NCBI GenBank assembly: GCA_041484665.1
Contig: JBGPIA010000007.1
Location: 96,001-160,000 of the forward strand
DNA from: Candidatus Krumholzibacteriia bacterium
Lineage (GTDB): Bacteria > Krumholzibacteriota > Krumholzibacteriia > JAJRXK01
DNA: 64,000 nt
Direction: 5' to 3'
Below the pieces are notes generated by a model. The model worked only from the letters and a program-made list of their open reading frames with translations, had not been told where the DNA came from and made no database searches. A program made the position numbers and the translations under genes. Position 1 is the stretch's first letter. Each line of letters starts with the position of its first letter. This document shows positions 13,134 to 62,476 of this stretch, in pieces.

Positions 13134-13179
13134 AGCCCTCCGTCCGACCCCCCCATCCAGATCGCAGGAGGAACCCCCA

Positions 13180-30937: not shown

Positions 30938-31217
30938 GGATCGGGTCGCGAACGGCCGCGGTTGTTGCGGGTGCCGCGGACGTGGCGGGAGTCGTAGGGG
31001 GCTGTTGTGGACCGCCAGGCGACGCCGCGCATTCCCGGGTGCCGTCCGCAGGCGGTTTGACCGTGACCGACGCGACAGCGTACCATGTTGGTGGCCCTCC
31101 CACGACCCCGCACTGCACCACCGCAGCGGGTCGTTGCTGCCGCCGATGGTCAATGACACGGCTGCCAGCCACGGCACGCTCGGCCGAACGCAACCCGCCC
31201 CCGTGGAGATCCCGTCC

Positions 31218-38414: not shown

Positions 38415-39119
38415 TCAGCGGGAGGTCGCAGCGGCACCCTGCTCGGATCCTCCTGCGGGGCTCGACTTCGCGGAAACGGCCACCGACGGGCCAGCGGGAT
38501 CGCCGACGGAGGCGCTCCCCGCGGCCATCTGCGCCATCGCCAGCGCGAGCCGGACCGTCTGCCCGATCCAGCGGGCCGGGGCTTCGCTGGCACGATCGGC
38601 AGCCTGCGGCAGCCAGCTCAGCAGATGGCGCTGCAGGTACTCCGCCCGCGCGCGGCCGATCTGCGCCAACGCCTCCCCCTGGCAGCCGCGGCGCAGCGTC
38701 TCGTCCTCCAGATGGAAGAGATGCGCCACAAACTCCAGCTGGTGTCGCAGGTGGTCTGCGGTCTCGTTGGCGCTGGAGCGCAGGCGCAGCCCAAACGCTT
38801 GGTAGAAGAGGATGTTCTCGTGCAGAACCTGCGGCACTGGACCGCGCCGGTTGTAATGCGACTCCAGCAGCGGCACCGGTGGGTGCGGCGCCCCCGCGTC
38901 GAAGGCCTCGATGTACTGGGCTTCGTACGCCTTGGCGCGCGTGGGGAGCCGCAGGGCTCCCTCGCGCTGCGGCCAGTCCGCCAGCTGCGCCAGACGCGCG
39001 AACATGCTGCGCGTGGAGCGAGCGCTCAGCCATTCCCACTGCTGCGCGCTCGGGGCGCGGAAGAGATCGTGCATGAAGAGGAAGGCGGCCTTCAGATCGG
39101 ACGGTGCGACCGTGGTCAT
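38415..39119 (-). CDS. TorD/DmsD/NarJ-family molybdoenzyme maturation chaperone
   Basis: YIEAFD...PLLESHY, FYQAFGL, ETADHLRHQLEF. Last gene of the molybdoenzyme operon. Confidence 0.85.
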   Translation of the reverse strand: MTTVAPSDLKAAFLFMHDLFRAPSAQQWEWLSARSTRSMFARLAQLADWPQREGALRLPTRAKAYEAQYIEAFDAGAPHPPVPLLESHYNRRGPVPQVLHENILFYQAFGLRLRSSANETADHLRHQLEFVAHLFHLEDETLRRGCQGEALAQIGRARAEYLQRHLLSWLPQAADRASEAPARWIGQTVRLALAMAQMAAGSASVGDPAGPSVAVSAKSSPAGGSEQGAAATSR

Positions 39120-39880
39120 TATGGCCCCACCTCGTACCAAGTGCTGAAGTACTTCAGCCCAGCGCGCTGCTGGCGTTCGCCGTCCCAGAAGGCGAAGGCC
39201 AGCGGCGTGCGCGGCGCCGGCGCAGGCAGCTCGAGCACGACCTCCCAGCCGCCCGCCGTGCGCCGCGCCGCGCCCGGAAACGACTCGCCGGTCGGCTCCG
39301 TCGATCCGCGCCCCGCGGCGCGCAGTCGCTCGAAGCCCCGCGCGGCGTCCCAGTAGTAGAGGCTCACCGGAGCGTCCTTGTCACCCATCATGAGCGCCGG
39401 GTACGTGGCACGCTCGCCGTCGGTCGCGGGCACCATCACGCACGCGGCGTCTGCGAAGCGCTCGATATCCATGGAGTGCTCCTTGTAGATGCGCTCGTCG
39501 CCGCCATCCGGGACGCGTTGTGGCGCGCGGGCGCGACTCTCGGTGGGATCCTGCCAGCGCAAGCGCACGAGCAGCTTGTCCTGCACCCTGGCCAGCGTCA
39601 CCCAGGCGACCGGCCGCGCGCCGTCGTCGACGGGATCGCCCTCGTAGATCGGCGGGGTGAGATTCAGATGGAGCGGCGCCTCCTCCAAGCCTGTCCAGCC
39701 ATCCGCGGCATTGCGCAGCTCGTCCGCGCTGCGACCGGACGACGTCACGGACAGCACGACCGCCCCATCCTCGACCGCGGGCGTCGCCTTGGCCGCGGCG
39801 ACCGCCGCCATGGGTACGACCGCGACCAGAAGCCCAGACAGCCGGAGGATCCAGGCTGCTCGCACCTCAATGACAGCCAT
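39119..39880 (-). CDS. Type II DMSO-reductase-family gamma subunit (EbdC-like periplasmic heme b protein)
   Basis: Signal peptide, RLRWQDPT, FADAACVM, LMMGD, AFAFWDGERQQRAGLK (Met/Lys heme b ligand pattern). Confidence 0.85.
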   Translation of the reverse strand: MAVIEVRAAWILRLSGLLVAVVPMAAVAAAKATPAVEDGAVVLSVTSSGRSADELRNAADGWTGLEEAPLHLNLTPPIYEGDPVDDGARPVAWVTLARVQDKLLVRLRWQDPTESRARAPQRVPDGGDERIYKEHSMDIERFADAACVMVPATDGERATYPALMMGDKDAPVSLYYWDAARGFERLRAAGRGSTEPTGESFPGAARRTAGGWEVVLELPAPAPRTPLAFAFWDGERQQRAGLKYFSTWYEVGP

Positions 39881-41084
39881 CGATGGCCTCCTTCGCTGGC
39901 GCGGGCGCGCAGCCACTCGCGCCCAGACCGCACGACGCGCATGCTCCCAGGGACGCTCTGCCGCCGCCTGCGCCCCCGCCACCTTGGCCGCTCCCGCCGC
40001 CTGCAGGAACGGGCAGCGTCCAAGGCGTCAGCGCATCGGGACCCGGCACATGGCGCCGCACCGCTCCCTGCACCTCGGCCGGCGCTGCGGTGAGCACGTC
40101 GTGGGGCACGATCCGGTAGCGCACCTGGTCGTCGCGGCCGATCAACAGTTGCAGCGCCTCGCTGCGCTCGCCGCGCTGCGCGCGCGCCAGCTCGGCCTCC
40201 AGCCGCAGGATCACGTCTGTGACCTGCGGTCCGAACAGGTATTGCAGGTATTCGAGCGGCAGACGCGGGTCGTCCAGAATGCTCTTGCCGGCGTTTCCGG
40301 TCTTGGGCGGGCTGAACGGCGGAACGTAGTAGACGTTGGGCACGGTTCCCTTCCCGGGAAACAGGCCCAAGGCCACCTTGTGCTCCAGCACCAGCTTGTG
40401 CACCGGCGACTGCGGGTCGTCGAGCAGCCCCACGAAGCGGATGCGCCCGGGGCACTGCGCCGCGCAAGCGTTGACCTTGCCCTTCTCCAGGCGCGGGTAG
40501 CAGAAGATGCACTTCTCGCTGCGCTGCGTGACTTCGTTGTAATAGATCTTCTTGTAGGGGCACGCCTTGATGCAGTACCGATAGCCGCGGCAGCGCTCCT
40601 GGTCGATCAGGACGATCCCATCCTCCTGCCGCTTGTAGATGGCCTTGCGCGGGCACGCCTCCAGGCAGGCCGGGTGCGTGCAGTGGTTGCAGATGCGCGG
40701 CAGGTAGAAGAAGTACGGGTTGCTCGGGTCCCAGCCGCCGACATCCTCGTCCCAGTTGGGGCCCCACTGCGGGTCGACGTGGGGCATGACCGGCTTGTTC
40801 TTCCCGTCGAACAGGCGCTGGGCGTAGTCGTACTCGAACGCCTCGCCGTAGTCGGCCTTGGCCGGCAGGGGCGACGGCCGCAGGTGGCGCTGCGCGTCGA
40901 AGCCGCCGCCCAGCGTGTGCCAGCCCCGCGGGTAGCCGGCGCCCGGGTGGGTCTCGACGTTGTTCCAGTACATGTAGTCCATGCCGTCGCCGTCGGTCCA
41001 TTGCTTCTTGCACGCGAGCGTGCAGGTCTGGCACCCGATGCACTTGTTCAGGTCCATGACCATCGCGTACTGGTGCGCGGACAT
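39867..41084 (-). CDS. narH: Type II DMSO-reductase-family beta (Fe-S) subunit, NarH-like
   Basis: MVMDLNKCIGCQTCTLACK, LPRICNHCTHPACLEACP, CRGYRYCIKACPYKK, EKCIFCYPR, CAAQCPGRIR. Confidence 0.9.
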   Translation of the reverse strand: MSAHQYAMVMDLNKCIGCQTCTLACKKQWTDGDGMDYMYWNNVETHPGAGYPRGWHTLGGGFDAQRHLRPSPLPAKADYGEAFEYDYAQRLFDGKNKPVMPHVDPQWGPNWDEDVGGWDPSNPYFFYLPRICNHCTHPACLEACPRKAIYKRQEDGIVLIDQERCRGYRYCIKACPYKKIYYNEVTQRSEKCIFCYPRLEKGKVNACAAQCPGRIRFVGLLDDPQSPVHKLVLEHKVALGLFPGKGTVPNVYYVPPFSPPKTGNAGKSILDDPRLPLEYLQYLFGPQVTDVILRLEAELARAQRGERSEALQLLIGRDDQVRYRIVPHDVLTAAPAEVQGAVRRHVPGPDALTPWTLPVPAGGGSGQGGGGAGGGRASLGACASCGLGASGCAPAPAKEAIDGCH

Positions 41085-41086
41085 GC

Positions 41087-44000
41087 TCAGCTCCTCGCGG
41101 CGGGCCGCTCGTACGCGGCGACGGGTCCGGTGTAGCGCGCGACGTCGACCTTGATATCGCGGTTGTTCCCGGTGGGGCCCCAATAGTTGAGCTTGAAGTT
41201 CAGGTGCCCGTAGCCGCCCACCAGCTGGGTCGGCTTGATCTTGATATAGGTGAGCGACTGCCAGCCGCCCTGCTGGAAGCCCAGGTACTTCTCCCAGCCG
41301 TGGTACATGGTCAGGCGCCCCTTCTTCTCGCCGGGGAGCAGTTTTGCCCGGACGATGGCGTCGCCCTGGTCGTTGTGCACGCGCACCCAGTCGTTGTCGC
41401 CGATCCCGCGCGAGCGGGCGTCGTCGGGATGGATGTAGACGATGGGCAGCCCGCGCTGCAGGCGAAGCATGTAGCGGTTGTCGCGCCAGGTGCTGTGGAT
41501 CGACCAGCGGCTATGGGGTGTGTTCCAGTAGAGCGGGTACTTGGGGTCGTCGACGGGGTCCTTGTGCACGGGGAGCTGCTCGCCGAGCTGCAGATACCAG
41601 TCATGATCTACGTAGAACTGCTGGCGGCCCGTGAGCGTGCGCCAGGGCCGCTTGTGCTCCGTCTGGTGCGTGAAAGGCGTGTAGGCACGTCCGGGCTCGA
41701 TTTCGCTGTTCCACGCCTCGGCGTCGATGGCACGGAAGCGCTGCGGGGCTTGCTGCAGCCCCTGGTAGCTCATTCCGCGCGTCTCGTCGGAGTTGGCCAG
41801 GATGAAATTGGCGAAGGCTTCATCGGAGTCCAGCGTGCCCTCCGCCGTCCACTCCGCCGTGAGCTTCGTGAAGTCGCGTGTCCAGCCCAGGTCGTTGTCC
41901 TGGAACGGTGTCAGGCCCCGCCGCTTCGCCAACTCCTCGATCTTCTGCGCCAGCCCGTGGAAAATCTCCCAGTCCGTCCTCGACTCGAAGAGCGGATCGA
42001 GCACCTTGCTGAACGGGTGCATGTATGAGTGGCAGTCGGTGCTGTTGAGGTCGGCCTTCTCGTAGTAGCTCGCAGCGGGCAGTACCACATCGCTGTAGAG
42101 CGCGGTCGTGTCCATGCGGAAGTTGACGTCGACGATCAGGTCGAGGTCGCGCCAAAGCGAACGCAGGATCGCCTCGTTGCCCTTCGCCTGGTTGAGGTAG
42201 TTGGCGCGCCACACGATCAGCGCACGTGGCTTGCGCGGCAGATCGTGCATCTGCGTGGGCTGGATCGCGGCCCAATCCTGCTTCGGCCACAGCGGCATCC
42301 ACTGATTGCGGACGGCCTCGAGGATCCAGTGCTCGATGGGCTTGCCGGCTACGGAGTGGGGATCCTGCATCTTGCTGTGGCAGTAGGTCCACAGCGTCGT
42401 GTTCTGGAACCGCTGCTTCTTGGGTCCCTGCGGGAAGGACAACCGCTTGAAACCGCGCTCGGGCCAGACGCGCTCCTGCCCCACGTAATGGTTGAAGCCG
42501 CCGCCGTTGCGCCCGACGTTTCCCGTGAGCGCTGCGATCAGGATCAGCGCGCGGTTGAGCAGATCGTTGTGGTACCAATGGTTGACACCGGCGCCGTGGA
42601 TGATCATGGCCGGCGCCCGCGTGAAGCCCTCGGCGAAGCTCAGCAGATCCTGCTCCGACAGCCCGCACGCCTGCGCCGCCCGCGCCGGCTCGTACAGCGG
42701 ATTGGCGAGCGTCTGCTTCAGCAGGCTGAACACGGTGGTGACCTCGACCTGGCGCTCGCCGTCCAGCGTGACGGACCAGCTGCCCGACAGCGCGGGGTCG
42801 ATCCCAGACAAGCGCAGCGACTTGCGCGCGGAGCCCATGCTGCCGGGCACAGGGGCCGGGGCCCCCTTGGCTGCGTCCCAGACGTAGAAGACGGCCTGCG
42901 GATCTCCGGGTGGCGGTCCTTTTTCCCCCTCTGGCTTGCTGGTGCCCTCGCGCGCGCCCGCCGTCTCGCCTTTGCGCTGGGCGGCGCTTGCGCCCTTGGC
43001 ACCGCTGTTCGTCGCGCCGCCGGTCGTGGCGGCCTTTGTCACGCCCAAGCCAGCCGGCGGCTGGACGCGGCCGGCGTCCCAGTCGGCCACCGCGGGCTCC
43101 ACACCGCGCCGGTCCGCAGGCAGATCGGCAGCGCGCAGGTACTTGCCCGTGTCCTTTCGCACCAGGAGCGGCAGATCCGTCTGCTCTTTGATGTAGGGGA
43201 CATCGATTTTGTCCTGCTCGATCAGCCAGCGCGAGACTGCGTTCGCCAGGATGGTGTCCATGCCCGGCGTGATGTGCAGGTACTGGTCGCAGTGGATGGC
43301 GCTGGCGTTGTAGTCGGGCGACACGCAGGCGACCTTTGCGCCGTTGTAGCGAGCCTCCCAGGCGAAGTGCGCGTCGGGAATGCGCGTCGCGTTGATATTG
43401 CTGCCCCACAGTACGATGTACTTGGCGTTGAACCAATCGGCGCACTCGCAGGCCTCGGTCTGTACGCCCCACGTGATGGGCTCGCCTGGGGGAAGATCGC
43501 AATACCAGTCGTAGAAAGAGCAGACCACCCCGCCGAGGTAGTGCGCCAGCCGCACACCCGCGGAGAACGACACGGGCGACATGGCCGGAATCACCGAGAA
43601 GAACGTATTCGTGTCCGGACCATGGCTGTAGATGTTGTCCAGGAGCTTGCCCGCGATGTGCTCCAGCGCCTCGTCCCAGCTCGCCCGCCGCCACTTGCCC
43701 TCTCCGCGTTTGCCGGCGCGGATCAGCGGATACTTCACCCGTTGCGCGCCGTAGACGTATTCGACGAAGCAGGCGCCCTTCTGGCAGCCGCGTGGGTTGT
43801 AGTCGGGCAGGTCCGCGTTGATGCGCGGGTAGTCGGCGGCCTGCTCCTCGCGCAGCATGATCCCGTCCTTGACGTAGACCTTCCAGGAGCAGGAGCCGGT
43901 ACAGTTGGCCGAGTGCGTCGAGCGGACGACTTTGTCCCAGCTGAAGTGCCGCCGGTAGAGCTCCTCCCAGCCGCGATACGGGTACGTGCGCAACGGATCG

Positions 44001-44293
44001 ACGTCGAGGATCTCGAACTCCTCCAGCGCCGCGTTCGTGGGCCGCGCCAGCAGGGCGGCGAGACCCAACCCCGCGCCCGCGCCGACCTTCAGGAAGCGGC
44101 GGCGACTCACCCCGGTGGCGGCGGTCGGCGGCCGCTCGCCCCCGCCTGCTTGCATCGTGGGATGCCCGGTCAAAGTGGGAGCGTCCGGCAGCCTGAAATG
44201 CCCTGACAGCCCGGGATCATCCGGCAGTGCAGCATCCACCGGCCTCGGGCTCGCGGCAGCGTGGGATGGGTCATGGTCGTCCATGGCGGTCAC
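41087..44293 (-). CDS. narG: Tat-exported type II DMSO-reductase-family catalytic subunit, periplasmic nitrate reductase (pNar)-like
   Basis: Tat motif SRRRFLK, FS0 motif HSANCTGSC...PRGCQKG, Mo-ligand motif SFYDWYCDLPPG, HYVGQE, TPHSRWSIHS. About 1000 aa mature. Start could be 44293 or 44284. Confidence 0.85.
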   Translation of the reverse strand: MTAMDDHDPSHAAASPRPVDAALPDDPGLSGHFRLPDAPTLTGHPTMQAGGGERPPTAATGVSRRRFLKVGAGAGLGLAALLARPTNAALEEFEILDVDPLRTYPYRGWEELYRRHFSWDKVVRSTHSANCTGSCSWKVYVKDGIMLREEQAADYPRINADLPDYNPRGCQKGACFVEYVYGAQRVKYPLIRAGKRGEGKWRRASWDEALEHIAGKLLDNIYSHGPDTNTFFSVIPAMSPVSFSAGVRLAHYLGGVVCSFYDWYCDLPPGEPITWGVQTEACECADWFNAKYIVLWGSNINATRIPDAHFAWEARYNGAKVACVSPDYNASAIHCDQYLHITPGMDTILANAVSRWLIEQDKIDVPYIKEQTDLPLLVRKDTGKYLRAADLPADRRGVEPAVADWDAGRVQPPAGLGVTKAATTGGATNSGAKGASAAQRKGETAGAREGTSKPEGEKGPPPGDPQAVFYVWDAAKGAPAPVPGSMGSARKSLRLSGIDPALSGSWSVTLDGERQVEVTTVFSLLKQTLANPLYEPARAAQACGLSEQDLLSFAEGFTRAPAMIIHGAGVNHWYHNDLLNRALILIAALTGNVGRNGGGFNHYVGQERVWPERGFKRLSFPQGPKKQRFQNTTLWTYCHSKMQDPHSVAGKPIEHWILEAVRNQWMPLWPKQDWAAIQPTQMHDLPRKPRALIVWRANYLNQAKGNEAILRSLWRDLDLIVDVNFRMDTTALYSDVVLPAASYYEKADLNSTDCHSYMHPFSKVLDPLFESRTDWEIFHGLAQKIEELAKRRGLTPFQDNDLGWTRDFTKLTAEWTAEGTLDSDEAFANFILANSDETRGMSYQGLQQAPQRFRAIDAEAWNSEIEPGRAYTPFTHQTEHKRPWRTLTGRQQFYVDHDWYLQLGEQLPVHKDPVDDPKYPLYWNTPHSRWSIHSTWRDNRYMLRLQRGLPIVYIHPDDARSRGIGDNDWVRVHNDQGDAIVRAKLLPGEKKGRLTMYHGWEKYLGFQQGGWQSLTYIKIKPTQLVGGYGHLNFKLNYWGPTGNNRDIKVDVARYTGPVAAYERPAARS

Positions 44294-44296
44294 TTT

Positions 44297-45922
44297 CTAT
44301 CGGGTCTGCGCGCCGGCCGGCGCTGCCGCCGTGATGTCGGGTGCACTGGGCGCCGCGGCGGGCGCCCTGGGAGCGACCGAGGGCGTGGTCGAGAGCGCCG
44401 TCATGTCCTGACCGGCGGGCGCTCCGATCCGGCGCAGGAAGGCGATCAGGTCGTCGAGTTGCGGTTCCTGGAAGCCGCCCTCCGCAGGCGCCACAGCGAG
44501 GAATGCGGGCATGGCCGTGTTCCGCCGGCCGAAGGCGATGGTGGCGTACAGGAAGTCGTCGCTGGCGTAACGCTGGAGCGCAGGCGCGACCAGCGACGGG
44601 CCCAGCCTCCCCTCGGCCGACAGTCCGTGGCAGCCCGAGCACTGCTTGGCGAACAGGGATGTGCCCCGCCGCGCGTCGCCACGCGCCGCGCGCGGATGGC
44701 TGCGGATGGGCGCCGTGGCCGCGGTCTGCGTCGCGTCCAGCTCGCGCCCCAGCAGGGTGCTGGCCAGGCGCAGGATCTCCTCCTCGCTCAACCCTCCGGC
44801 GGCCGCTCCCCACGCCGGCATGATCGTCCCGGCGCGCCCCTCGCGGATGTTGGCGGCCACGTACGCGGGCTCGGCGATCCGTTGGTAGGTCTCGCCGCGG
44901 ATCGCGGGGATGAACCGCGCGAAGAACTTGTCGTAGCGTCCGTAGATCCCCGTGTCGTGGCAGCTCTGGCACAGATCGGCGTAGAGCTGGTCGCCGCTGC
45001 GCGGCTCCGGGTGTTGGACGCGATAGAGGGCCAGGTGCTTGAGCGGGCTCAGGTACGATTTCGGGAGGTCACGCTGCTGCAGCGACAGCAGGAACGCGGT
45101 CAGCGCCGTTCGCTCGTCGCGGCTCAGGCCCGGGGTGGGCATCTGGCTGCCGGCGACGACCTGACGCGGATCGTCGAAGTGCTCGATCAGCCATTGGGCC
45201 AGGGTGTGCGGGCCCTGCACGTGGCCAAAGGGGAGCTGCCCGCGGACCTTGAGCCCCTCGTTGTCGAGAGCGGGCCCCAGACTCCCGCCCAGGCCGTCGA
45301 GCTTGTGGCAGCTGCGGCACCCCTTGGACACGAACAGCGCCGCGCCACGGGCGTATACCTCGCCTCCGCGTTGGGCCACCTCGGCGGGCGTGTGGCAGAT
45401 GCCGCAGGAGGACTGCGTCAAGTCCAGCGGAAGCAGCGGGTAGTCCCAGTGCCGGTCCTCGGCCTTGGCATCGGCGAAGTTGGTGGCCGCTCCCTGCCCG
45501 CGGTGGCAGATCGTGCAGCCGAACCGCGCGTCTTCGTGCCACTGCAGATAGGCGCCGGGGTGCGTGCGGTATGGATTGGGGACGTCGGTCATGCGCGGAT
45601 CGTCGTAGCCGGTGTGGCAGCTGACGCAGCGGTCCATCACACCCAGGTCCGCAACGACGATCTGGCGCAGCTCGACGACGTACTGGTCGGCGAGCTTGCG
45701 CCCCCAGTCGTCGCCGGCCTTCTGTCGCAGGATCTGCCCGTACTCGAGCTGGTGCCGCCGCCAGGTCGGCCGCAGGTTTTCCTCGACTGCGGCGTAGATC
45801 AGCACGCCCACCGTGGCCAGGCTCACGGCCAAGAGCCAGAGCTTCACCGCGCGGTCCCGCCGCAGCGCCTCCGCACGTACCGCCTCGGCGATCCCCAGGA
45901 TGTCCTTGCCGTTTGCGCTCAT
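44297..45922 (-). CDS. Membrane-anchored hexaheme cytochrome c
   Basis: N-terminal TM and six CxxCH motifs (CVSCH, CTICH, CGICH, CRSCH, CQSCH, CSGCH). Confidence 0.92.
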   Translation of the reverse strand: MSANGKDILGIAEAVRAEALRRDRAVKLWLLAVSLATVGVLIYAAVEENLRPTWRRHQLEYGQILRQKAGDDWGRKLADQYVVELRQIVVADLGVMDRCVSCHTGYDDPRMTDVPNPYRTHPGAYLQWHEDARFGCTICHRGQGAATNFADAKAEDRHWDYPLLPLDLTQSSCGICHTPAEVAQRGGEVYARGAALFVSKGCRSCHKLDGLGGSLGPALDNEGLKVRGQLPFGHVQGPHTLAQWLIEHFDDPRQVVAGSQMPTPGLSRDERTALTAFLLSLQQRDLPKSYLSPLKHLALYRVQHPEPRSGDQLYADLCQSCHDTGIYGRYDKFFARFIPAIRGETYQRIAEPAYVAANIREGRAGTIMPAWGAAAGGLSEEEILRLASTLLGRELDATQTAATAPIRSHPRAARGDARRGTSLFAKQCSGCHGLSAEGRLGPSLVAPALQRYASDDFLYATIAFGRRNTAMPAFLAVAPAEGGFQEPQLDDLIAFLRRIGAPAGQDMTALSTTPSVAPRAPAAAPSAPDITAAAPAGAQTR

Positions 45923-45931
45923 GGCGACACC

Positions 45932-47488
45932 TCAGTGGACGGGCCAGCGCGAGCTGCTCCAGTAGAAATCCCAATTGGGGCCGCGCAGCTGCGAGCCCAC
46001 GTACGTCAGCACGACGAATCCGGCCAAGAAACACGAGAACAGCGCGATCGCGGACATACGTGTCGAGCCGGTGCGCCGCAGCGCGCCCAGCGACCACAGC
46101 GCGTACGCCAGCGTGAGCAGCGTGCCGGGATTGACGAAGATGATCAGGAGCTGCGGCGCGTGGGGGAACCAGCTGCGAATCCAGCCGAACTCCACCGGGA
46201 CGGCCACCGCGAGCGCGGCCGCAGCCAGGCCGAAGATCAAGCTCTGCACCGCCATGCGCCGGCCGCGCGGGCCGCTGAACCAGATTCCCGGCTCCTCCCG
46301 CTCACGGTCGAGATACGGGATCAGCGCCAGCCCGAGCACCACGATGGCGGGGATGACCAGCCCGCCCATGAACGCCGAGTAGGAGACCATCTCCTGCAGG
46401 CCCAGGAAATACCACGGCGCCTTCGCCGGGTTTTCCGGGATGCTGGGGTTGGCCAGCTCCTTGAGCGGCGCGTCGAACCGGATGCCAAGCACCGTGACCA
46501 GCAGCATGGTGCCCATGAAGACCAGCAACTCGGCGCGCAGCAGGAACGGCCAGCTGGGCAATGTGTCGGCGGGATCGAGGTTGGTGGCGGGCGTGCGGTC
46601 GCGCACGATGCACATGAGACCGTAGGTCTTGCGCGGCGATTGCTCCGGGGCGGCCGGGGGCGTCCCCGCCACGGCGGCGCCCTTGCCCGCCGTGGTGACC
46701 GCCACGCCTGGGCGCGCCAGGCCTCCATCCTTGCGCAGGCGCCAGAAGTGCACGCCCAGAAGCGCCACGACCGAGAGCGGCAGGATCATCACGTGGAGCA
46801 GGTAGAAACGGATCAAGGCCTCCTGTCCGATCTCGCTCGCGCCCAACAGCAGCTGTTTGATGAAACCGCCCGGATCGAGCACGGACGTGATCCCCACGGC
46901 GTCGGTCAGCTCGCGCGGTGAGGCGGCGATGTTGCTGCCGATGGTGATGGCCCAGTAGGCAAGCTGGTCCCAGGGCAGCAGGTAGCCAGTGAACGACAGC
47001 CCCAGCGTGAGCACGAACAGCCCCATCCCCACCAGCCAGTTGAACTCGCGGGGGGCTTTGTAGGCGGCCGTGTAGAACACACGCACCATGTGCAGGATCA
47101 CCGCGATCACCATCAAGTGCGCCGCCCAGCGGTGAATGTTGCGGATGAAGCGTCCGGTGGGCACGACGTAGTGGATGTCCTTCATGCTCTGGTAGGCCGC
47201 GTCGGTCGCGGGTTTGTAATAGACCATGAGCAGGATCCCGGTCGCGACGAGGATGGCGAACAGCGAGGCGGTGGCCACCCCCAGCGCCATGGTCGTGGAG
47301 AAGCGCAGCGTGCGGATGTGCACGCGAGTGGCGTGCAGGTGCAGGAATACGTTTCCGAACACCGCCTGGCTGCGGCTGCGATCGCTCACGGGCGGTCCCT
47401 GCCGCACCAGCGACTCCTTGAACGTGCGCGGCAGCGCCCGCAGGTTCGCGCGGAAGAGGGCCAGCCCGGCCGGGCCGATGGCGGTCAT
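45932..47488 (-). CDS. petB: Cytochrome b of a Rieske/cytb complex (b6-like plus subunit-IV-like in one chain)
   Basis: IHRWAAH, ILHMVRVF, GYLLPWDQ, YLLH...GVHFW. The PEWY position reads KAPWYF. Confidence 0.92.
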   Translation of the reverse strand: MTAIGPAGLALFRANLRALPRTFKESLVRQGPPVSDRSRSQAVFGNVFLHLHATRVHIRTLRFSTTMALGVATASLFAILVATGILLMVYYKPATDAAYQSMKDIHYVVPTGRFIRNIHRWAAHLMVIAVILHMVRVFYTAAYKAPREFNWLVGMGLFVLTLGLSFTGYLLPWDQLAYWAITIGSNIAASPRELTDAVGITSVLDPGGFIKQLLLGASEIGQEALIRFYLLHVMILPLSVVALLGVHFWRLRKDGGLARPGVAVTTAGKGAAVAGTPPAAPEQSPRKTYGLMCIVRDRTPATNLDPADTLPSWPFLLRAELLVFMGTMLLVTVLGIRFDAPLKELANPSIPENPAKAPWYFLGLQEMVSYSAFMGGLVIPAIVVLGLALIPYLDREREEPGIWFSGPRGRRMAVQSLIFGLAAAALAVAVPVEFGWIRSWFPHAPQLLIIFVNPGTLLTLAYALWSLGALRRTGSTRMSAIALFSCFLAGFVVLTYVGSQLRGPNWDFYWSSSRWPVH

Positions 47489-47506
47489 GATCGCGTCCTC
47501 ATCTCG

Positions 47507-47974
47507 CTAGCCCGCAAAGAAGGTTTCGGGGGCGACCTCGCGCTTCGCGTCCACCAGCAGGCTCCCATCGGCCGCGCGCGATACCTCCAGCCAGCGCAGC
47601 CCGCGCGGCGCCGGGCCGCCTACCACCGCGCCCTGCGCGTCGAAGCGCGAGCCGTGGCACGGGCAGCGGAAGCCGTCGGGGGTCTCGCCCACGATGCATC
47701 CCAGGTGGGTGCAGACCAGCGACATGGCCGCGACACCTTTGGCCGTCGAGACGATCCGCACGTTGCGCTCGGGCAGGACGCGCACCGTGCCGGCCGCGTA
47801 CTGCTCCAGGCGGCCGATGCGGAAGCGTGAGCCGGCCTCGGGCAACAGCCGCGGCCTTGGCAGTCGCGCCATGCCGTGCAGCGATCCCAGGACCGCCGCG
47901 GCGGCGCTCAGCAGACCCGCCAGGCTCAGGAAATCACGGCGCGGAATCGGCGCGGGCTCTAGGCGACCTGACAT
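47507..47974 (-). CDS. petC: Rieske [2Fe-2S] protein
   Basis: Tat motif RRDFL, CTHLGC, CPCHGSRF, GPAPRGL. Confidence 0.93.
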   Translation of the reverse strand: MSGRLEPAPIPRRDFLSLAGLLSAAAAVLGSLHGMARLPRPRLLPEAGSRFRIGRLEQYAAGTVRVLPERNVRIVSTAKGVAAMSLVCTHLGCIVGETPDGFRCPCHGSRFDAQGAVVGGPAPRGLRWLEVSRAADGSLLVDAKREVAPETFFAG

Positions 47975-50223
47975 ACGAGCCTCTCCTGGAAGAGGAAGCG
48001 TTCCATGGTGATGGCCCCCGTGGGGCAGCGTTGCGCGCACAACGCGCAGCGGATGCAAATGGTCTCGTCCTTCACGATGGCCGAGGCCTGCCCGGGGGGG
48101 ACGCCGGCCAGCTGTGTGGCGAGCACGTCGGACAGGCGGTCTCGGCCGTGGCTCGCGCTGCCGGCAGCGCTGTCCTTTGCAGTGCCGGCCGCGCTGGCAG
48201 CCGCGATGCTGGCTGCGCTGGCAGCCGGGGTCGGGACTGCACTGGCAGCTGGGCCGCCCACTGCGGCACCGTCCGCGGCACCGTTCGCGGCGGGGACCAG
48301 CCGGTCGACCGACACGATGCGTAAGCACAGCTGCGGGCAGACGTCCACGCAGCCGCCGCAAAGGATGCACTTGTCGCCGTCGAAAATGGTGTTGACGCCG
48401 CAGTCCAGGCAGCGTGACGCCTCGCGGTGCGCCTGCGCGTGCGTGTAGACCATCTCCACGGGAGAGCTTTGGGAGGCCAGCCGCGCCTTCGGAGTTGCGG
48501 TCGGCACCGCGACGCGTCGCGTCGTCTCGTAGCTGGCCTCCCGCAGGTAACCGGGAAGCGCCAGGTGCAGCTCCACATCGCGCGGGGCGAGTGTCCGGCC
48601 GGTGACGGCCCGGTAGATCTCCCGGGCCACCTGCTTGCCCGAGGCCACGGCGTGGATTAGGAGCTTGGGCCCATAGGCGAGGTCGCCAGCGACGTAGAGC
48701 CCCGGTGTGCGCGTGGCGCCGGTGACCGGGTCGCACGCGATTGTCCCGCGCGGCGTCAGCTCGACGGCGTCGCGCTGCGCGTCGACGAAGCGCAGGTCGA
48801 CCTCCTGGCCGATCGCCAGCAGTACCGTGTCGCAGGGGATCGTCTCGCGCACGCTGTCGTCGAAGAGGGGCGCGAAGCGGTGGCGCTCGTCGTACACCCG
48901 CGTGCACGGCCGGAACACGACCCCGGTCACGCGTCCTTGCGCATCCTGCTCGAGCTCGACGGGGCCGAGGCCGTTGCGCCGGACGATCCCCTCCTCGTCA
49001 CCCTCGAGGATCTCCACGTCGTCGGCGGGCATCTCGGCAAGCGACTCCAGCGAGCAGAGCGTCACGGTGCTGACCCCGGCCTCGCGCAGGGCCGTGCGTG
49101 CCGCGTCGAGGGAGATCTGACGCAGCACCGTGCGGCCGACGTCGTAGGCCACGTTGCCGCCGCCGATCACCACGACGCGCCGGCCGAGGGGTACTTGGCG
49201 GCCCAGGGCAATGTCGCGCAGGAACTCCACGCCACCCAGCACTTCCGCGGCACCGGCGCCAGGGATGGGCACGCGGCGGGAGCGTTTGGCGCCCACCGCG
49301 ACGATCACCGCATCGTGGCGCTGGCGCAGCTGCGCCAGCGAGATGTCCTTACCTACCTCGCAGCTGGTGACCGCCCTCACGCCCAGCGCCTCGATCACGG
49401 CCACCTCGGCCCGGATCAGGTCGCGCGGCAGGCGGTACTCCGGCACTCCGATCGAGAGCATGCCGGCCAGCACCGGCTCCATCTCGTAGATCGTGACGTC
49501 GATGCCCAGCAGCGTCAGGTCGTGCGCCGCGGCGAGCCCGGCGGGCCCGCTGCCGATGATCCCCACCGACTTGCCCGTGGCGAGCGGGACGTCGCCCGCC
49601 AGCAGCGACTGCAGGAGCGGCAGCAGCTCCTCGGCACCCGTGCACGGCTGCGCGTCGGGTCGCCGCTGCGCGGCGCGGCGCGCGGAATCCTTGAGGAAGT
49701 CGATCAGGCCGCGGCTGACGTCGGGATGCGCCTCGGGACCATACCGCTCGCAGACGAAGCGCTTCAGCGCTCGGATGGCGATTGGTCGGTCGAGCTCGCC
49801 GCGCCGGCACGCGAGCTCGCACGGCGCGCCGCAGATGCGGCCGCAGATGGACGCCAGCGGGTTCGGACCGCGGGCGATCAGATATGCCAGCTCGAGGTCG
49901 CCCTCGGCGATGGCGCGCACGTAGCCGCGCGCATCGGTGTGCACGGGGCAGGCCGCCTGGCATTTGATCTGGCTCTTCCAGTAATCGAGGTCGGGGATGC
50001 GTACCGGCACCGTCATCGCCGCGGCGGCGTGGGACGGCGGAGCGGAGCCTGGTGGCAGTCCGCCGGCGTGGGGCGGCAGAGCGCACTCTGGTGGCAGTCC
50101 GCCAGCGTGTGGCGGCGTCCCCCGCGCCGCTCCCGAATCGCCGGACGCGCCCGCACGATCTGGCCGGCCGGCCGGCCGGGGCGCGCCTCCCCCTGCAGAT
50201 GGAGCTGGCTCTCGAAGGGCCAA
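47959..50223 (-). CDS. GltD/NfnB/DsrL-like NAD(P)/FAD oxidoreductase with N-terminal Fe-S and C-terminal 2x[4Fe-4S] domains
   Basis: CQAACPVH, ICGRICGAPCELACRR, GSGPAGL, GGGNVAYD, RCLDC, CILCGGCVDVCP, CIRCALCAQRCP. Start is TTG 50223 (AGGAGG RBS) or ATG 50016. No signal peptide. Confidence 0.9.
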   Translation of the reverse strand: MALREPAPSAGGGAPRPAGRPDRAGASGDSGAARGTPPHAGGLPPECALPPHAGGLPPGSAPPSHAAAAMTVPVRIPDLDYWKSQIKCQAACPVHTDARGYVRAIAEGDLELAYLIARGPNPLASICGRICGAPCELACRRGELDRPIAIRALKRFVCERYGPEAHPDVSRGLIDFLKDSARRAAQRRPDAQPCTGAEELLPLLQSLLAGDVPLATGKSVGIIGSGPAGLAAAHDLTLLGIDVTIYEMEPVLAGMLSIGVPEYRLPRDLIRAEVAVIEALGVRAVTSCEVGKDISLAQLRQRHDAVIVAVGAKRSRRVPIPGAGAAEVLGGVEFLRDIALGRQVPLGRRVVVIGGGNVAYDVGRTVLRQISLDAARTALREAGVSTVTLCSLESLAEMPADDVEILEGDEEGIVRRNGLGPVELEQDAQGRVTGVVFRPCTRVYDERHRFAPLFDDSVRETIPCDTVLLAIGQEVDLRFVDAQRDAVELTPRGTIACDPVTGATRTPGLYVAGDLAYGPKLLIHAVASGKQVAREIYRAVTGRTLAPRDVELHLALPGYLREASYETTRRVAVPTATPKARLASQSSPVEMVYTHAQAHREASRCLDCGVNTIFDGDKCILCGGCVDVCPQLCLRIVSVDRLVPAANGAADGAAVGGPAASAVPTPAASAASIAAASAAGTAKDSAAGSASHGRDRLSDVLATQLAGVPPGQASAIVKDETICIRCALCAQRCPTGAITMERFLFQERLVCQVA

Positions 50224-50274
50224 GGCTCCTCCTCGCCGCCCCCGGCCGCGCCGGCAGCCGAGCCGCGGGCGGCG

Positions 50275-51465
50275 CTACCGGGTTACCGCGGGCGGCGCTT
50301 GCGTGCGCGGCCCAACGGCGCCGCCCGCGCTCTGCGCCCCGCCGCCGGGCGACTCGCCGCGCCCGCTGTGGTCGTTGCCACCCCGGCCATTCACGGCGGG
50401 GTGGCCGTACTGCGCGCCGTGGATGTCCTGGATGCGCTCCACGTACTCGCGGTCGCCGATCCCGTTGCGCCACAGCCCTGCGGCGCGCGCGCCCGCGTAG
50501 CCGGCCACGAACAACAACACCACGGCCGTGGCGTAGGTCAGCACACCGATGCGCCGCCCGCCCGCGTGGATCGTGAGCGTGTCGCTCACCGGGCAGACCG
50601 CGACGCAGTCGAGGCACCCGGTGCACTCGGCACTCAGCAAGGCGCCCGCGGTGGAGACCGGCAGACGCGCCATACAGACCTTGTCACACAGCTTGCAGTC
50701 GATGCAGCTGGCCGGCGCGCGGCGCACGCGCACGGGCGAAAGCCGCGAGAGCAGACCCAAGAGCGCGCCGTAGGGGCACAGATACCGGCACCACAATCCC
50801 TGCACGAAGACCGACGCGACGACCAGCACCAGAAGTGTGATGCCCGCCGTCCTGCCCAGTTGGGCGAAGAACAGCGCCATCTTCACGTCGGCGACCCGGT
50901 TGTAGGGTGACTCGAGGAAGAAGCGCAACTCGACTTGGTGCATGGCCGCGATCGAGTAGGCGAAGAAGGCGAGCAACAGGTACTTCAGCCCGCGCAGCGG
51001 CACGTCCAGAGAGCGCCAGATGCGGAAGTTGCGCCCGAACAGCCTGCGGCCCACCCGCGCCAACGCCTCGGACAGGAAGCCCACCGGGCAGATCCACGCG
51101 CAGAACGACTTGCGCAGCAGGAGCGCCAGCGCAGCGGCGATCAGCAGCAGGATCGTGGCCGCCGGGTGGATGCGGTTGAGCGTCCCCTGGTGGACCCAGT
51201 CGACCAGCCCCATGAGGCCACTGATGGGCAGGAAGCCCTCGACGCCGGGAGGCCGCACGGGCAGCGGCAGGGCTCCCTGCTGGGCGGCGCGGTAGAACTG
51301 GGCGAACTGGACTCCCAGCAGCACGCACGTCGCGGCGAACGCCGACTGCACGAGCAGGCGCGCGCGCCACGAGCGGTCGGCTTTGCGGCCCGTGCGGCCG
51401 CCGAGCCACGCGCGCAGGGGGAGGTGGGGGATCGAGGCGGGCAACGTCTGGAGCAGGTGTCTCAT
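50275..51465 (-). CDS. YccM/NapH-like membrane polyferredoxin
   Basis: GVEGFLPISG, FCAWICPVG, WCRYLCPYG, CIDCKLCDKVC, CTGCLDCVAVCP, several TM helices. Confidence 0.88.
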   Translation of the reverse strand: MRHLLQTLPASIPHLPLRAWLGGRTGRKADRSWRARLLVQSAFAATCVLLGVQFAQFYRAAQQGALPLPVRPPGVEGFLPISGLMGLVDWVHQGTLNRIHPAATILLLIAAALALLLRKSFCAWICPVGFLSEALARVGRRLFGRNFRIWRSLDVPLRGLKYLLLAFFAYSIAAMHQVELRFFLESPYNRVADVKMALFFAQLGRTAGITLLVLVVASVFVQGLWCRYLCPYGALLGLLSRLSPVRVRRAPASCIDCKLCDKVCMARLPVSTAGALLSAECTGCLDCVAVCPVSDTLTIHAGGRRIGVLTYATAVVLLFVAGYAGARAAGLWRNGIGDREYVERIQDIHGAQYGHPAVNGRGGNDHSGRGESPGGGAQSAGGAVGPRTQAPPAVTR

Positions 51466-51524
51466 GGCGCTCCCTGCGGCGGCGGTCCGCGCGGGGTCGC
51501 GCTGCGCCAACCGGTCGAGAGCAA

Positions 51525-51549
51525 AAATAGGATATCACGGTCCAGATAT
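51525..51549. promoter_or_regulatory. Putative Rrf2 operator, upstream of the respiratory operon
   Basis: AT-rich AAATAGGATATCACGGTCCAGATAT. Shares AGGATATC-N4-TCCAG with the site upstream of the Rrf2 gene. Confidence 0.6.
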
Positions 51550-51758
51550 CAAAAGAAACTTGGCGCAGCCTTGCCGGCTCGGTGCGCGGGCCTCGCCGGA
51601 CGGCGGACCGCCGGCGCACAGATGTCCGGAATCGATTGCCGTGGATAGACTTCAACGCTGGTGTCGGCCAGCCCTCCCGCTGGAAACCCAGGCTCGTCGT
51701 CTAGACCTTGACTGTTTACCCGGGGAAACCGCGGCGCGGGGGCGGCGGAGGGGAGACC

Positions 51759-52313
51759 CTAGCTCCCCGAGCCGTGCGGCTTCCGGCGCGGCGACCGCGA
51801 GCCGCCCCGGGAGCGATCCAGCGCGCGGGACCTAGGCGGCGGCGCGGGGGCATGGCGTGCCGCTTTGGGTGGCGCGTCTGGAGTCCCGCTCTCGCACAAC
51901 GGAGAGCTGGCACCGGGGCCTCGATCGCGCAGGACGTCGGCGACGGTCGAGGTGGCGAAGACGCGCTCGACCTCGGCAATCGCGCGGTCGAGGCGCTGAT
52001 GCAGCAGGCACAGGTTCGCTCCGTGCATCTCGATCCCCAGGGGGCACTCGCGGATCCGCTGCAAGGGATCGACCACATTGATGACGTCCAGGATCGACAG
52101 TTCGCGCGGCTCGACCGCCAGCACGAAACCCCCGTGCAGTCCACGCTGGGAGCTGACGTAACCGGCTCGGCCGAGGGACTGGAGGACTTTCGAGAGATAG
52201 TCCGCCGGGACCTTCGTGCCGCGGGCGATCTGCCGCGTGGTGTGCGCCGCTTCGCGATGGGCGGCAAGCCATACGATCGCGCGCAGCGCGTACTCGGCGG
52301 TCTGGGAGAACAC
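51759..52313 (-). CDS. Rrf2-family transcriptional regulator (probably Fe-S binding)
   Basis: FSQTAEYALRA, YLSKVLQSL, SQRGLHGGF, CPLG...HGANLCLLH. GTG start inferred. Confidence 0.9.
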   Translation of the reverse strand: MFSQTAEYALRAIVWLAAHREAAHTTRQIARGTKVPADYLSKVLQSLGRAGYVSSQRGLHGGFVLAVEPRELSILDVINVVDPLQRIRECPLGIEMHGANLCLLHQRLDRAIAEVERVFATSTVADVLRDRGPGASSPLCESGTPDAPPKAARHAPAPPPRSRALDRSRGGSRSPRRKPHGSGS

Positions 52314-52476: not shown

Positions 52477-52770
52477 TGCCGAGCACCGTGGAGGGCAAGC
52501 GGCAAGTCCGGCGCCGCAGCATGGGGCGGCAGTCGAGGGCGGCGAGCGATCCGCGCTGCAAAGAGCGAGCGATGCAGGTGGTGACCGGCGCGAGGAGCAT
52601 GGACCCAGCCGGGGCCGCTACCAAAAAAAGCCAACGATTGGCATGCGGCCGGAATGCGGGTATGGTGGCGGTCGTTGGCCGTGCCTCGCTGCCTGCCCCG
52701 CCGCGGCCGCCGTCACTGCCCTCCCCGGCCCTTCGGCCCGCCCGCCCTCTGGTCGCCGCAGGAGGCGACA

Positions 52771-56206: not shown

Positions 56207-57190
56207 CTATCCGTTCCATCCGCCCCGCAGCAGCTTGGCCGCGTCGACGGCGCTATACGTGAGGATCATGTCGGCCCCCGCGCGCCGGAATGCCGTGAGG
56301 GTCTCCATGAGGATCCGGTCGTAGTCGATCCAGCCGTTGGCAGCAGCGGCCTTGAGCATCGCGTACTCGCCGCTGACGTGGTAGACGGCAGTCGGCATCC
56401 CGAAACGGTCCTTCACCCGGCGCAGCACGTCGAGGTACGGCAGGCCTGGCTTCACCATGACGATGTCGGCGCCCTCTTCGATGTCGAGCGCCACTTCGCG
56501 CAGCGCCTCGTCTCCATTGGCCGGATCCATCTGGTAGCTCTTGCGATCGCCGAACTGCGGGGGCGACTGGGCCGCGTCGCGGAACGGCCCGTAGAAGGCG
56601 CTGGCGTACTTGGCGGCGTAGCTCATGATCGGCAGATGGGTGAAGCCGTCGTCATCCAGGCGCTCGCGGATGGCCGCCACGCGGCCGTCCATCATGTCGC
56701 TGGGGGCCACGATGTCCGCTCCCGCCCGCGCGTGGGCGAGCGACTCGCGCGCCAGCAGGTCCAGGGTCCGGTCGTTGTCGACGTCGCCGCCCTCGATCAC
56801 GCCGCAGTGCCCGTGGTCGGTGTACTCGCACAGGCACACGTCGGTGATCACCAGCATGTCCGGCACGTGCTCCTTCAGCGCGCGCACCGCGTTGGGGATG
56901 ATCCCCTCGTCGTCGTAGGCCTCGCTGCCCTGGGGATCCTTGCGTGTGGGGATCCCGAACAGGATCGTGGCGGTGACCCCGACCTCCACGGCCTCGCTCA
57001 GCATGTCGATCAGGCGGTCGATCGACAGCTGGTGCTGGCCCGGCATGCTGGGGATCTCGCTCCTGATGCCCTTTCCGGGAACGACGAACGTCGGATAGAT
57101 GAGCTGCTCCGCAGCCAGGCGCGTCTCGCGCACCAGCGCCCGCAGCCGCGGAGTGCGGCGCAGGCGACGCATGCGGTGATCGGGGAACAT
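56207..57190 (-). CDS. hemB: Porphobilinogen synthase (Zn type)
   Basis: [49 protein letters not shown]. Confidence 0.97.
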
Positions 57191-57408
57191 CGGGTCCTCC
57201 TCCTTCGGAGCACAGCGCCGGACGTGCGCCCGGGTGCCGAGAGCTCGCGTGGGGAGATCTCGGGTGCCGAAATCTCAACGGACGGATTCAAGATGCAGGA
57301 ATCCCGATCGCGACGGTCGACCCGGGAGCCGCCCGCCCTGCTCTCCCAGGGGGCTGCCATGTGACGCGGGATGGCGGTTTTATGGCTGGGCCCGCCGCAG
57401 CGGCCCCG

Positions 57409-62444: not shown

Positions 62445-62476
62445 GCGCTCTCCTTGGCCGTGTTGCTCTCGTATAC

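Follow-up and report, generated by a model that had tools for sequence, protein, structure and literature searches.

An eight-gene cassette that may join a periplasmic NarG-type molybdoenzyme to an NAD(P)-linked Rieske/cytochrome b complex in a Krumholzibacteriia genome

Our subject is a cassette of eight genes in a 64,000-nucleotide stretch of DNA from a Candidatus Krumholzibacteriia bacterium (assembly GCA_041484665.1, contig JBGPIA010000007.1, positions 96,001 to 160,000; this whole stretch is called the window below). The cassette occupies 38415-50016 on the minus strand and is found with the same gene order in related loci from about ten phyla. We lean towards reading it, from its sequence, as a menaquinol:nitrate oxidoreductase that is built as a supercomplex, has a branch linked to NAD(P) and would carry out periplasmic nitrate respiration through a Rieske/cytochrome b complex of its own. 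Two modules would be combined in it. One is a NarG-type molybdoenzyme exported through twin-arginine translocation (Tat), made of alpha, beta and haem-b gamma subunits with their chaperone. The other is a Rieske/b6-like complex of the type found in anammox (anaerobic ammonium-oxidizing) bacteria, to which a hexahaem cytochrome c anchored in the membrane and an NAD(P)/flavin adenine dinucleotide (FAD) iron-sulfur (FeS) flavoprotein of the cytoplasm are added. The gene families, topology signals, cofactor motifs and gene order are evident from the sequence, while the path of the electrons and what the flavoprotein does are predictions. As a combination of known kinds the cassette is new, uncharacterised and widespread.

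The cassette and its conservation

The G+C content of the window is about 70% and its lists of open reading frames (ORFs) are crowded as a result. The coding frame of each stretch was chosen by codon-position G+C, and gene families were assigned by profile searches with Pfam and NCBIfam. Ten co-oriented genes fill 38415-52313 on the minus strand, and a preliminary description of this stretch had named the family of each of them, correctly in all ten cases. The eight that form the cassette begin with a GltD-like NAD(P)/FAD FeS flavoprotein (47959-50016; Pyr_redox_2, Fer4_20 and two Fer4 domains; PRK12771, 384 bits). This is followed by a Rieske [2Fe-2S] protein with a twin-arginine (RR) signal-anchor (47507-47974; PF00355), a cytochrome b in which a b6-like and a subunit-IV-like part are fused (45932-47488; PF00033 and PF13631; ExtP 243 bits, ExtQ 56 bits), and a membrane-anchored hexahaem cytochrome c with six CxxCH motifs and one N-terminal transmembrane (TM)-like segment (44297-45922). 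Then come the Tat-exported NarG-type molybdopterin subunit alpha (41087-44158, or from an alternative GTG start at 44293), the four-cluster FeS subunit beta (39867-41087; Fer4_11), the periplasmic haem-b subunit gamma of the EbdC/Orf7 type with its signal peptide (39119-39880; EB_dh, 29.7 bits, under the cut-off), and a NarJ/TorD-type assembly chaperone (38415-39119; PF02613, 53.8 bits, above the cut-off). The spacings between these genes, from flavoprotein to chaperone, are -16, 18, 9, 3 (138 from the ATG start of alpha), -1, -14 and -1 nt. The ten genes had been described as mostly abutting, which holds for these eight but not for the two that lie upstream of them, an Rrf2-family regulator and a NapH-like gene, where the gaps are 293 nt (Rrf2 to NapH-like) and 258 nt (NapH-like to flavoprotein).

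Evidence that the eight genes belong together comes from their relatives. A scan of one genome per species gave 219 relatives of alpha, and the best 80 of them were kept, making up 78 loci whose alpha proteins are 59-75% identical to that of the window. By their labels most of these loci belong to Acidobacteriota/Terriglobia, and the rest to Eisenbacteria, Ignavibacteria, Zixibacteria, Hydrogenedentota, Omnitrophota, Armatimonadota, Myxococcota, Planctomycetota and others. The ten window proteins were compared by tblastn with these 78 loci, the best of the 219 relatives, and the counts that follow refer to them. Flavoprotein, Rieske protein, cytochrome b and hexahaem cytochrome c are all present in the 55 loci that have at least 6.5 kb upstream of alpha (55/55), the hexahaem cytochrome c in 69/69 loci with at least 1.7 kb upstream, and beta, gamma and chaperone in 58/58 loci with at least 2.8 kb downstream. 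Gene order and co-orientation are the same in all informative loci. An arrangement that recurs in 55/55 and 58/58 informative related loci is far beyond chance, and the cassette is the eight genes from flavoprotein to chaperone. The preliminary description had asked for a search of gene order in other genomes, and had accepted that its proposal would fail if the Rieske/cytochrome b/flavoprotein block were unlinked to the molybdoenzyme there; the counts above contradict this.

The remaining two of the ten genes do not belong to this unit in the same way. The Rrf2-family transcriptional regulator (51759-52313, minus strand, start codon uncertain; PF02082 100 bits and TIGR00738 105 bits, above cut-off) has, in 13 of 54 loci, a co-oriented match no more than 1.5 kb upstream of the flavoprotein gene, so that it is an occasional neighbour of the cassette, and likely its regulator. 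The NapH/YccM-like membrane FeS protein (50275-51465, minus strand; five TM-like segments; Fer4_5 65 bits; NapH/MauN TIGR02163 84.8 bits, under the cut-off of 213) has no match upstream of the cassette in any of the 54 related loci. Its orthologues, with 55-63% identity, occur in 7 of 9 relatives of the same family, all of which are without the alpha gene, and the 1.5-kb flanks of the orthologues in these seven (L143-L149 in our numbering of loci) contain none of the window's neighbour genes. This gene is at home in the host lineage and lies outside the conserved cassette. What had been taken for one unit of ten genes is reduced to eight, with Rrf2 as an occasional addition.

Other genes accompany the cassette in some relatives. 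Hemerythrin-domain genes stand beside Rrf2 upstream of it at L004:3336-3920 (Ignavibacteria) and L008:3693-4271 (Terriglobia), and recombinase or integrase genes are found just downstream of it in the same two loci. A Crp/Fnr-type regulator is near the cassette in L027, and MoaA/MobAB in L013 and L025. A promoter scan of the window gave 2 promoter-like sites against 0.7 expected and 10 terminator-like sites against 5.1 expected, which is uninformative at 70% G+C; one of the promoter-like sites (51552-51524) is upstream of the NapH-like gene. When sequencing runs were searched for the stretch, 24 DNA runs from sediment metagenomes were found to contain it and no RNA runs were found among those that do.

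The two modules

Alpha and beta both pass the curated NCBIfam cut-offs of the type II dimethyl sulfoxide (DMSO) reductase family (alpha, TIGR03479, 1111.3 bits against 984.75; beta, TIGR03478, 492.5 bits against 480.7), and the NarG equivalog TIGR01580 reaches 627.8 bits on alpha, under its cut-off of 1084. In phmmer comparisons alpha scores 909 bits to the NarG of Haloferax (Hfx.) mediterranei, with about 47-49% identity, 888-892 to PcrA, 550 to Thermus NarG, 545 to ClrA, 530 to Escherichia coli NarG, 383 to EbdA and 210 to Kuenenia NxrA (7b04). Judged by these scores it is about equally close to the haloarchaeal periplasmic nitrate reductase subunit (pNarG) and to PcrA. Alpha has the Tat motif SRRRFLK; most members of its clade have S-R-R-x-F/M-I/L, and the Hfx. 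mediterranei NarG has SRRTFLE. The features of a canonical cytoplasm-facing NarGHI are not seen here, where alpha has a Tat motif and NarI is missing from the ten products, while those of a pNar cluster are, with Rieske/cytochrome b genes and an EB_dh-type haem-b protein. The preliminary description had reported neither NarI nor NarK, and Pfam matches to both families are indeed lacking among the ten products, the rest of the window not having been searched for either. An MFS_1 gene lies at 23712-25220, 13 kb from the cassette.

The trees of alpha contain, besides the cassette proteins, the Hfx. mediterranei NarG, two ClrA, the E. coli and Thermus NarG and two NXR-type proteins. In a tree of 65 rows, from which 19 of the 78 loci were dropped when the alpha ORF was outside 880-1150 aa or cut by a contig end, the cassette alphas form one clade with a support of 97 in the Shimodaira-Hasegawa-like approximate likelihood ratio test (SH-aLRT). 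They do so with 85/77 in a tree of 36 rows, in which the row for L124 (branch length 7.86) is evidently mis-sliced and should be disregarded. In both, the clade is apart from Hfx. mediterranei NarG, ClrA, cytoplasmic NarG and the NXR-type proteins. The window alpha groups with three metagenome-assembled genomes (MAGs) of Eisenbacteria with a support of 100. The lineage had earlier been called a probable uncultured member of the Fibrobacterota-Chlorobiota-Bacteroidota (FCB) group, which is plausible from one marker, HemB, whose nearest named match is a Krumholzibacteria MAG at 77% identity. Alpha also has a low-complexity loop of 67 residues, rich in Ala, Gly, Lys and Pro (42899-43099, minus strand; residues 354-420 from the ATG start). 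Between the two conserved anchors on its sides there are 85 residues in the window; the three Eisenbacteria relatives have 37-51 there, and most others 16-18.

Looking at the residues around the active site, we find the FS0 motif HSANCTGSCSW (H-x3-C-x3-C) in the window alpha and in 58 of the 59 other clade members, and SFYDWYCDLPPG in 59/59 other members, identical to E. coli NarG through the Asp Mo ligand. The Mo-ligand segment of the window alpha is SFYDWYCDLPP (FYDWY-x-D). The motif HYVGQE is found in the window and in 59/59 clade members, and its Glu aligns with the gate Trp of PcrA (W461 in the mature protein, W489 in the precursor). Alpha scores slightly higher by phmmer to the W-to-E variant of PcrA (5e7o) than to 4ydd, and the position of the gate Trp is a Glu in haloarchaeal and bacterial NarG (PMC8301774, in part; here and below, "in part" marks a source of which a part was available). 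Family searches were made over the whole genome (5.45 Mb in 54 contigs, 93.65% complete). They did not find chlorite dismutase (PF06778; control positive in 7/14 genomes), which is also lacking in the flanks of the 14 related loci scanned, and they found neither RuBisCO nor a second type II enzyme. The rpoB family match is missing too from this 93.65%-complete assembly, with the control positive in 14/14 genomes, and that gene is probably on an unassembled piece. The hemerythrin, Crp/Fnr-type and MoaA/MobAB neighbours in relatives were counted for the nitrate reading. On these motifs and scores nitrate is most likely the substrate of the enzyme, which narrows the "oxyanion" of the preliminary description, and specialised (per)chlorate reduction is unlikely.

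The second module resembles complexes of anammox bacteria. In the Protein Data Bank (PDB) the Rieske protein is best matched by 9rk4 (71 bits) and 9rk3 (54 bits), identified as the Kuenenia Rieske proteins Kuste4569 and Kustd1480 (PMC12954380, in part). Its boxes CTHLGC and CPCHGS-x-F are conserved in 65 sequences, and the second is of the Ser/Phe type, like that of Kustd1480, for which a potential of +335 mV was measured (PMC12954380, in part). The N-terminal half of the cytochrome b scores 131-133 bits to cytochrome b6 and about 99 bits to the cytochrome b of bc1 complexes (best PDB matches). Its nine TM-like segments divide into four and five, and the Kuenenia models likewise have five helices in subunit IV (PMC12954380, in part). 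The canonical haem ligands His119/133 and His232/247 are conserved in at least 95% of 64 sequences, and so are the additional His50/52/57 and the C-terminal His518; His50/52/57 are candidates for the ligands of the extra b haem proposed in the Kuenenia models. The flavoprotein is without a convincing TM segment or signal peptide, its one borderline hydrophobic stretch (550-568) lying inside a ferredoxin motif. Nineteen of its Cys recur in 95% or more of 52 sequences and are laid out as an N-terminal GltD-type cluster pair and a C-terminal ferredoxin-like domain with extra Cys. Cytochromes b of subfamily G are said to be accompanied by NAD(P)/FeS oxidoreductases "in many other cases", and clade G' to belong to "large conserved operons of unknown function" (Dibrova et al. 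2017, in part). We considered clade G' as the same operon, but identity could not be established; its members carry WLGT in the available part of that source where the window has ALGV.

The hexahaem cytochrome c may be the link between the modules. Its six CxxCH motifs are invariant in 40 sequences, and Met149, Met165 and Lys243 of gamma are invariant in 38. In EbdC the haem b is held by a Met and a Lys. Residues 50-510 of the hexahaem cytochrome c (40-row alignment) were co-folded with residues 38-253 of gamma (38-row alignment), giving an ipSAE interface score of 0.75 (0.73-0.80 in three runs) compared to 0.01 for the best of three controls. The pair passes a mark that is reached by 116 of 157 solved complexes and by 2 of 215 mismatched pairs, a calibration that is only rough with custom alignments. 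The runs have at least 86% of their contacts in common, and the predicted local confidence (pLDDT) of the partners is at least 79. The predicted interface is made of residues 425-431 and 465-484 of the hexahaem cytochrome c and 157-167 and 245-249 of gamma, and it sets the sixth haem motif (Cys428/Cys431/His432) against gamma loops with the invariant Met165 and Lys243. The model supports a binding of the hexahaem cytochrome c to gamma; we know of no solved complex of the two. Co-folding of the subunits had been suggested in the preliminary description, and this pair is the one that was folded. Its result lends support to the step from hexahaem cytochrome c to gamma in the wiring proposed there, from menaquinol through Rieske/cytochrome b and hexahaem cytochrome c to gamma, beta and alpha, the path itself being a prediction.

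The Rieske/cytochrome b/flavoprotein module is also found with other terminal enzymes. In an even sample of 401 Planctomycetota genomes at least 61 have a flavoprotein match at an E-value of at most 1e-60, 17 of these with at least 54% identity. From the best matches 18 regions were chosen, and in 15 of them flavoprotein, Rieske and cytochrome b genes stand co-oriented. What lies downstream is varied: a NarGH-like pair in L124 (NarH model above cut-off); an NXR-type alpha and beta in L131, L132, L137 and L138 (the L137 alpha with 870.7 bits to 7b04); a NapA-like protein in L136 (under cut-off); a cbb3 CcoN-like protein (under cut-off) with a CcoG/NapH-like one in L130; a CcoG/NapH-like protein in L134; a HAO/HDH-like octahaem protein in L139 (under cut-off); and unnamed proteins in L125-L129. 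All partner matches except NarH and NXR score under their family cut-offs. The module behaves as a plug-in unit for high-potential terminal enzymes, and the variety of its partners fits, without proving, the idea that an uphill branch has to be driven by a strong acceptor.

The electron path and its alternatives

The topology signals consist of Tat motifs on alpha and the Rieske protein, a signal peptide on gamma and a TM anchor on the hexahaem cytochrome c, with none on the flavoprotein. In the mechanism we propose, menaquinol would be oxidised at the Qo site of the complex. Menaquinone is indicated as the pool quinone because genes of the futalosine route are on the same contig as the cassette, namely a CofH/MqnC-type radical SAM gene (9264-10574), a VitK2_biosynth (MqnA/MqnD-type) gene (28020-29036) and a UbiA prenyltransferase gene (30083-31297), all on the minus strand. 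One electron would go from the Rieske [2Fe-2S] cluster over the six c haems, the haem b of gamma and the FeS clusters of beta to the molybdenum bis(molybdopterin guanine dinucleotide) (Mo-bisMGD) of alpha, where nitrate would likely be reduced to nitrite on the periplasmic side. The other electron would pass over the pair of b haems, and perhaps over a further haem bound by the conserved N-terminal His residues, to the FeS chain and FAD of the flavoprotein and then to NAD(P)+, which is the least secure step. This would be a quinol-based bifurcation powered by the high-potential nitrate branch, as has been proposed for the Kuenenia complexes. Alternatively, the second electron could go back to the quinone pool in an ordinary Q cycle. 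The upstream Rrf2 regulator would govern the cassette.

A bifurcating NAD(P)+ reductase is the most likely role for the NAD(P) branch, but this is an insecure assignment that we put forward tentatively. Similarly tentative is the full picture of a nitrate-driven quinol-bifurcating supercomplex that gives one menaquinol electron to periplasmic nitrate and the other to NAD(P)+. In that same joint reading it would be a member of a large modular family, in which the flavoprotein/Rieske/cytochrome b/multihaem unit is set on varied high-potential terminal enzymes (pNar, NXR-type, Nap-like, cbb3-oxidase-like and HAO-like).

Several observations weigh against the supercomplex and its bifurcating branch. 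All 78 loci come from MAGs, and alpha orthologues are found in none of the 30 genome relatives sampled (9 of the same family and 21 of the same class), the cassette being patchily distributed in the host lineage. Gamma and the chaperone score under the cut-offs of their NCBIfam models (TIGR03477, 85.6 bits against 169.85; TIGR03482, 93.2 against 152.3). The phylogeny called for in the preliminary description does set the alpha clade apart, but trees without PcrA, SerA, EbdA and Nitrobacter NxrA leave its sister group unplaced. The substrate motifs are also common to NarG-type nitrite oxidoreductases, and sequence does not decide between nitrate reduction and nitrite oxidation as the direction of the reaction. 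Family searches of the genome found neither NirK nor NirS, which leaves the fate of nitrite unexplained, along with a weak, sub-threshold NrfA-like match (23.6 bits) and two haem-copper oxidases. The cytochrome b is without the CxGG motif of haem cn and has ALGV instead, so that its low-potential path would differ from the published models; the cytochrome b rows of Kuenenia, Brocadia and Jettenia have CMGG (PMC5600118 supplement 3, in part).

Other explanations were weighed as well. The complex might run with NAD(P)H as the donor, with electrons going from the flavoprotein over its FeS chain and the b haems to quinone on the n-side, and with the Rieske branch as an ordinary Q cycle to nitrate. 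The unit would then be a proton-translocating NAD(P)H:nitrate oxidoreductase instead of a bifurcating NAD(P)+ reducer. The GltD-like flavoprotein is in principle reversible, electrons would run downhill from NAD(P)H (-320 mV) to menaquinone, and the missing haem-cn Cys makes the n-side unlike that of the anammox models. In addition, the paper on the Kuenenia complexes calls the avoidance of n-side quinone reduction an unsolved problem (PMC12954380, in part). However, a Rieske protein of the Ser/Phe, Kustd1480 type in a menaquinone organism is used as an argument that a b haem has a very low potential and that NAD(P)+ is reduced (PMC12954380, in part), and we consider NAD(P)H as the donor to be rather unlikely, though it deserves to be kept in mind.

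The reaction of the molybdoenzyme itself could also run the other way. As a periplasmic nitrite oxidoreductase it would send the electrons of nitrite to the hexahaem cytochrome c and on to an oxidase, and Rieske, cytochrome b and flavoprotein would serve for reverse electron flow. The motifs that Nar and Nxr enzymes have in common would allow this, and so would a genome with two haem-copper oxidases in which NirK, NirS and a clear NrfA are not found. Moreover, a closely related module in some Planctomycetota (flavoprotein 51-52% and cytochrome b 59-62% identical) has as its partner an NxrA homologue of the Kuenenia type, the one with 870 bits to 7b04. Yet alpha is far from this solved periplasmic NXR and nearest to PcrA and the Hfx. 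mediterranei NarG, a proven nitrate reductase; RuBisCO is not found in the genome; and the hemerythrin and Crp/Fnr neighbours fit an anaerobic reductase. Energy is a further obstacle, since by established bioenergetics the lifting of nitrite electrons (+430 mV) to NAD(P)+ takes far more than a reversed bc complex supplies. All this makes nitrite oxidation improbable. More improbable still is that the enzyme is specialised for an oxyanion other than nitrate, such as perchlorate, chlorate, selenate or iodate: PcrA is almost as close to alpha as pNarG, and side activities are likely given that haloarchaeal NarGH also reduces chlorate and perchlorate (PMC8301774, in part), but the gate Trp of PcrA is replaced by Glu throughout the clade, chlorite dismutase is absent from the genome search and the flanks scanned, and ClrA is distant in score and without the NarG motifs.

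Surroundings, known relatives and significance

The haem-biosynthesis genes hemL (34996-36300), hemB (56207-57274), hemC (58361-59587) and a HemN-like gene (61014-62498), all on the minus strand, stand on both sides of the cassette, which looks as if it is located inside a tetrapyrrole gene neighbourhood. Immediately beyond Rrf2 there are a B12-binding radical SAM protein with weak Pfam matches (52654-54573, plus strand) and a bacterial homologue of lipase maturation factor (54540-56084, minus strand; LMF1 and LMF1_C, 178-186 bits). At 12928-16662 (plus strand) and 21046-23856 (minus strand) the window encodes very large BNR/Sortilin-Vps10 repeat proteins, the first of 1244 and the second of 936 aa.

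Comparison with known systems shows where each half of the cassette has its counterpart. The narB-narC-narG-narH-Orf7-narJ cluster of Hfx. mediterranei (NZ_CP039141.1) has the same order of Rieske protein, cytochrome b, alpha, beta, EB_dh-type haem-b protein and TorD-type chaperone, and its alpha is likewise Tat-exported with the NarG motifs and the gate Glu. It differs in being without the flavoprotein and the multihaem cytochrome c, both of which are present in the window, and the window alpha belongs to a bacterial clade that the trees keep apart from the haloarchaeal protein. The cytochrome b of that cluster also belongs to another subfamily, with LLGE/PDWF, of the Actinobacteria/Thermus type (PMC3509893; PMC5600118 supplement 3; both in part), whereas the one in the window resembles b6 and is fused with a subunit IV of five helices.

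The other half is best compared to Kuste4569-4574 and Kustd1480-1485 of Kuenenia stuttgartiensis (PMC12954380, in part), which have in common with the window a Rieske protein, an NAD(P) oxidoreductase with an FeS chain, a b6-like cytochrome, a five-helix subunit IV and a hexa- or octahaem cytochrome c. In the window, by contrast, cytochrome b and subunit IV are fused, the haem-cn CxGG is missing and the flavoprotein gene stands at the head. As terminal enzyme there is a NarG-type molybdoenzyme instead of an HAO-like octahaem protein, and the hosts are not anammox bacteria. The merger of two designs that the preliminary description saw here is borne out by the haloarchaeal gene order on the one side and by Kuste4569 and Kustd1480 as the best solved Rieske matches on the other.

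Two further systems share some traits with the cassette. PcrAB (4ydd, 5e7o) is a periplasmic type II DMSO-reductase enzyme with the same FYDWY-x-D Mo-ligand segment. It receives its electrons through PcrC and a quinol dehydrogenase. The window enzyme differs from it in having Glu for the gate Trp, in a genome where chlorite dismutase is not found, and in its haem-b gamma subunit and Rieske/cytochrome b feed. The Nar cluster of Methanoperedens nitroreducens (NarG, NarH, NarJ, Orf7, HCO II-like and NapH) has a pseudo-periplasmic NarGH and an Orf7-type haem-b protein with a NapH-like gene nearby, and a Rieske/cytochrome b complex with multihaem cytochromes was proposed as its donor (PMC4683180, in part). 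Its Rieske/cytochrome b genes form a cluster of their own, and the available part of that source mentions no flavoprotein, while in the window the NapH-like gene is a resident of the lineage. Two other candidates were set aside. The Methylomirabilis cytochrome b DAMO_0768, near DAMO_0774-0779, is not part of this cassette, and the NarG of that organism was placed with the cytoplasmic enzymes of the Nitrobacter type (PMC6094997, in part). The "NXR" of Zixibacteria RBG-1 is described as NXR-like and is without conserved Nar residues, and its identity with the present enzyme was not established (PMC3903129, in part).

For cultured Acidobacteria, the available parts of the comparative papers examined contain no such enzyme. 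In the literature searched we found no description of a bacterial pNar joined to a flavoprotein-bearing Rieske/cytochrome b complex and no bench study of the cassette, so that the preliminary claim of an architecture not characterised before is upheld within that search; ten Brink et al. 2013, Kartal et al. 2013 and Dibrova et al. 2013 lie outside it and may bear on the question. Public annotations of alpha read "molybdopterin-dependent oxidoreductase", or a generic nitrate reductase or nitrite oxidoreductase subunit. Because these annotations are generic, surveys may misassign an enzyme that is widespread in bacteria of soils and sediments, a periplasmic nitrate reductase that is probably proton-motive.

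The splitting of quinol electrons between a high-potential acceptor and NAD(P)+ has been proposed for the NAD(P)-linked Rieske/cytochrome b complexes of anammox bacteria, and remains a standing puzzle. The cassette ties a complex of the same kind to a simple reaction that can be assayed, in which nitrate is reduced to nitrite, and with a cultured or heterologous host this could make the bifurcation hypothesis testable outside of the anammox bacteria. If the hypothesis is true, the cassette would represent a general route by which bacteria other than the anammox ones obtain low-potential reductant from the quinone pool.

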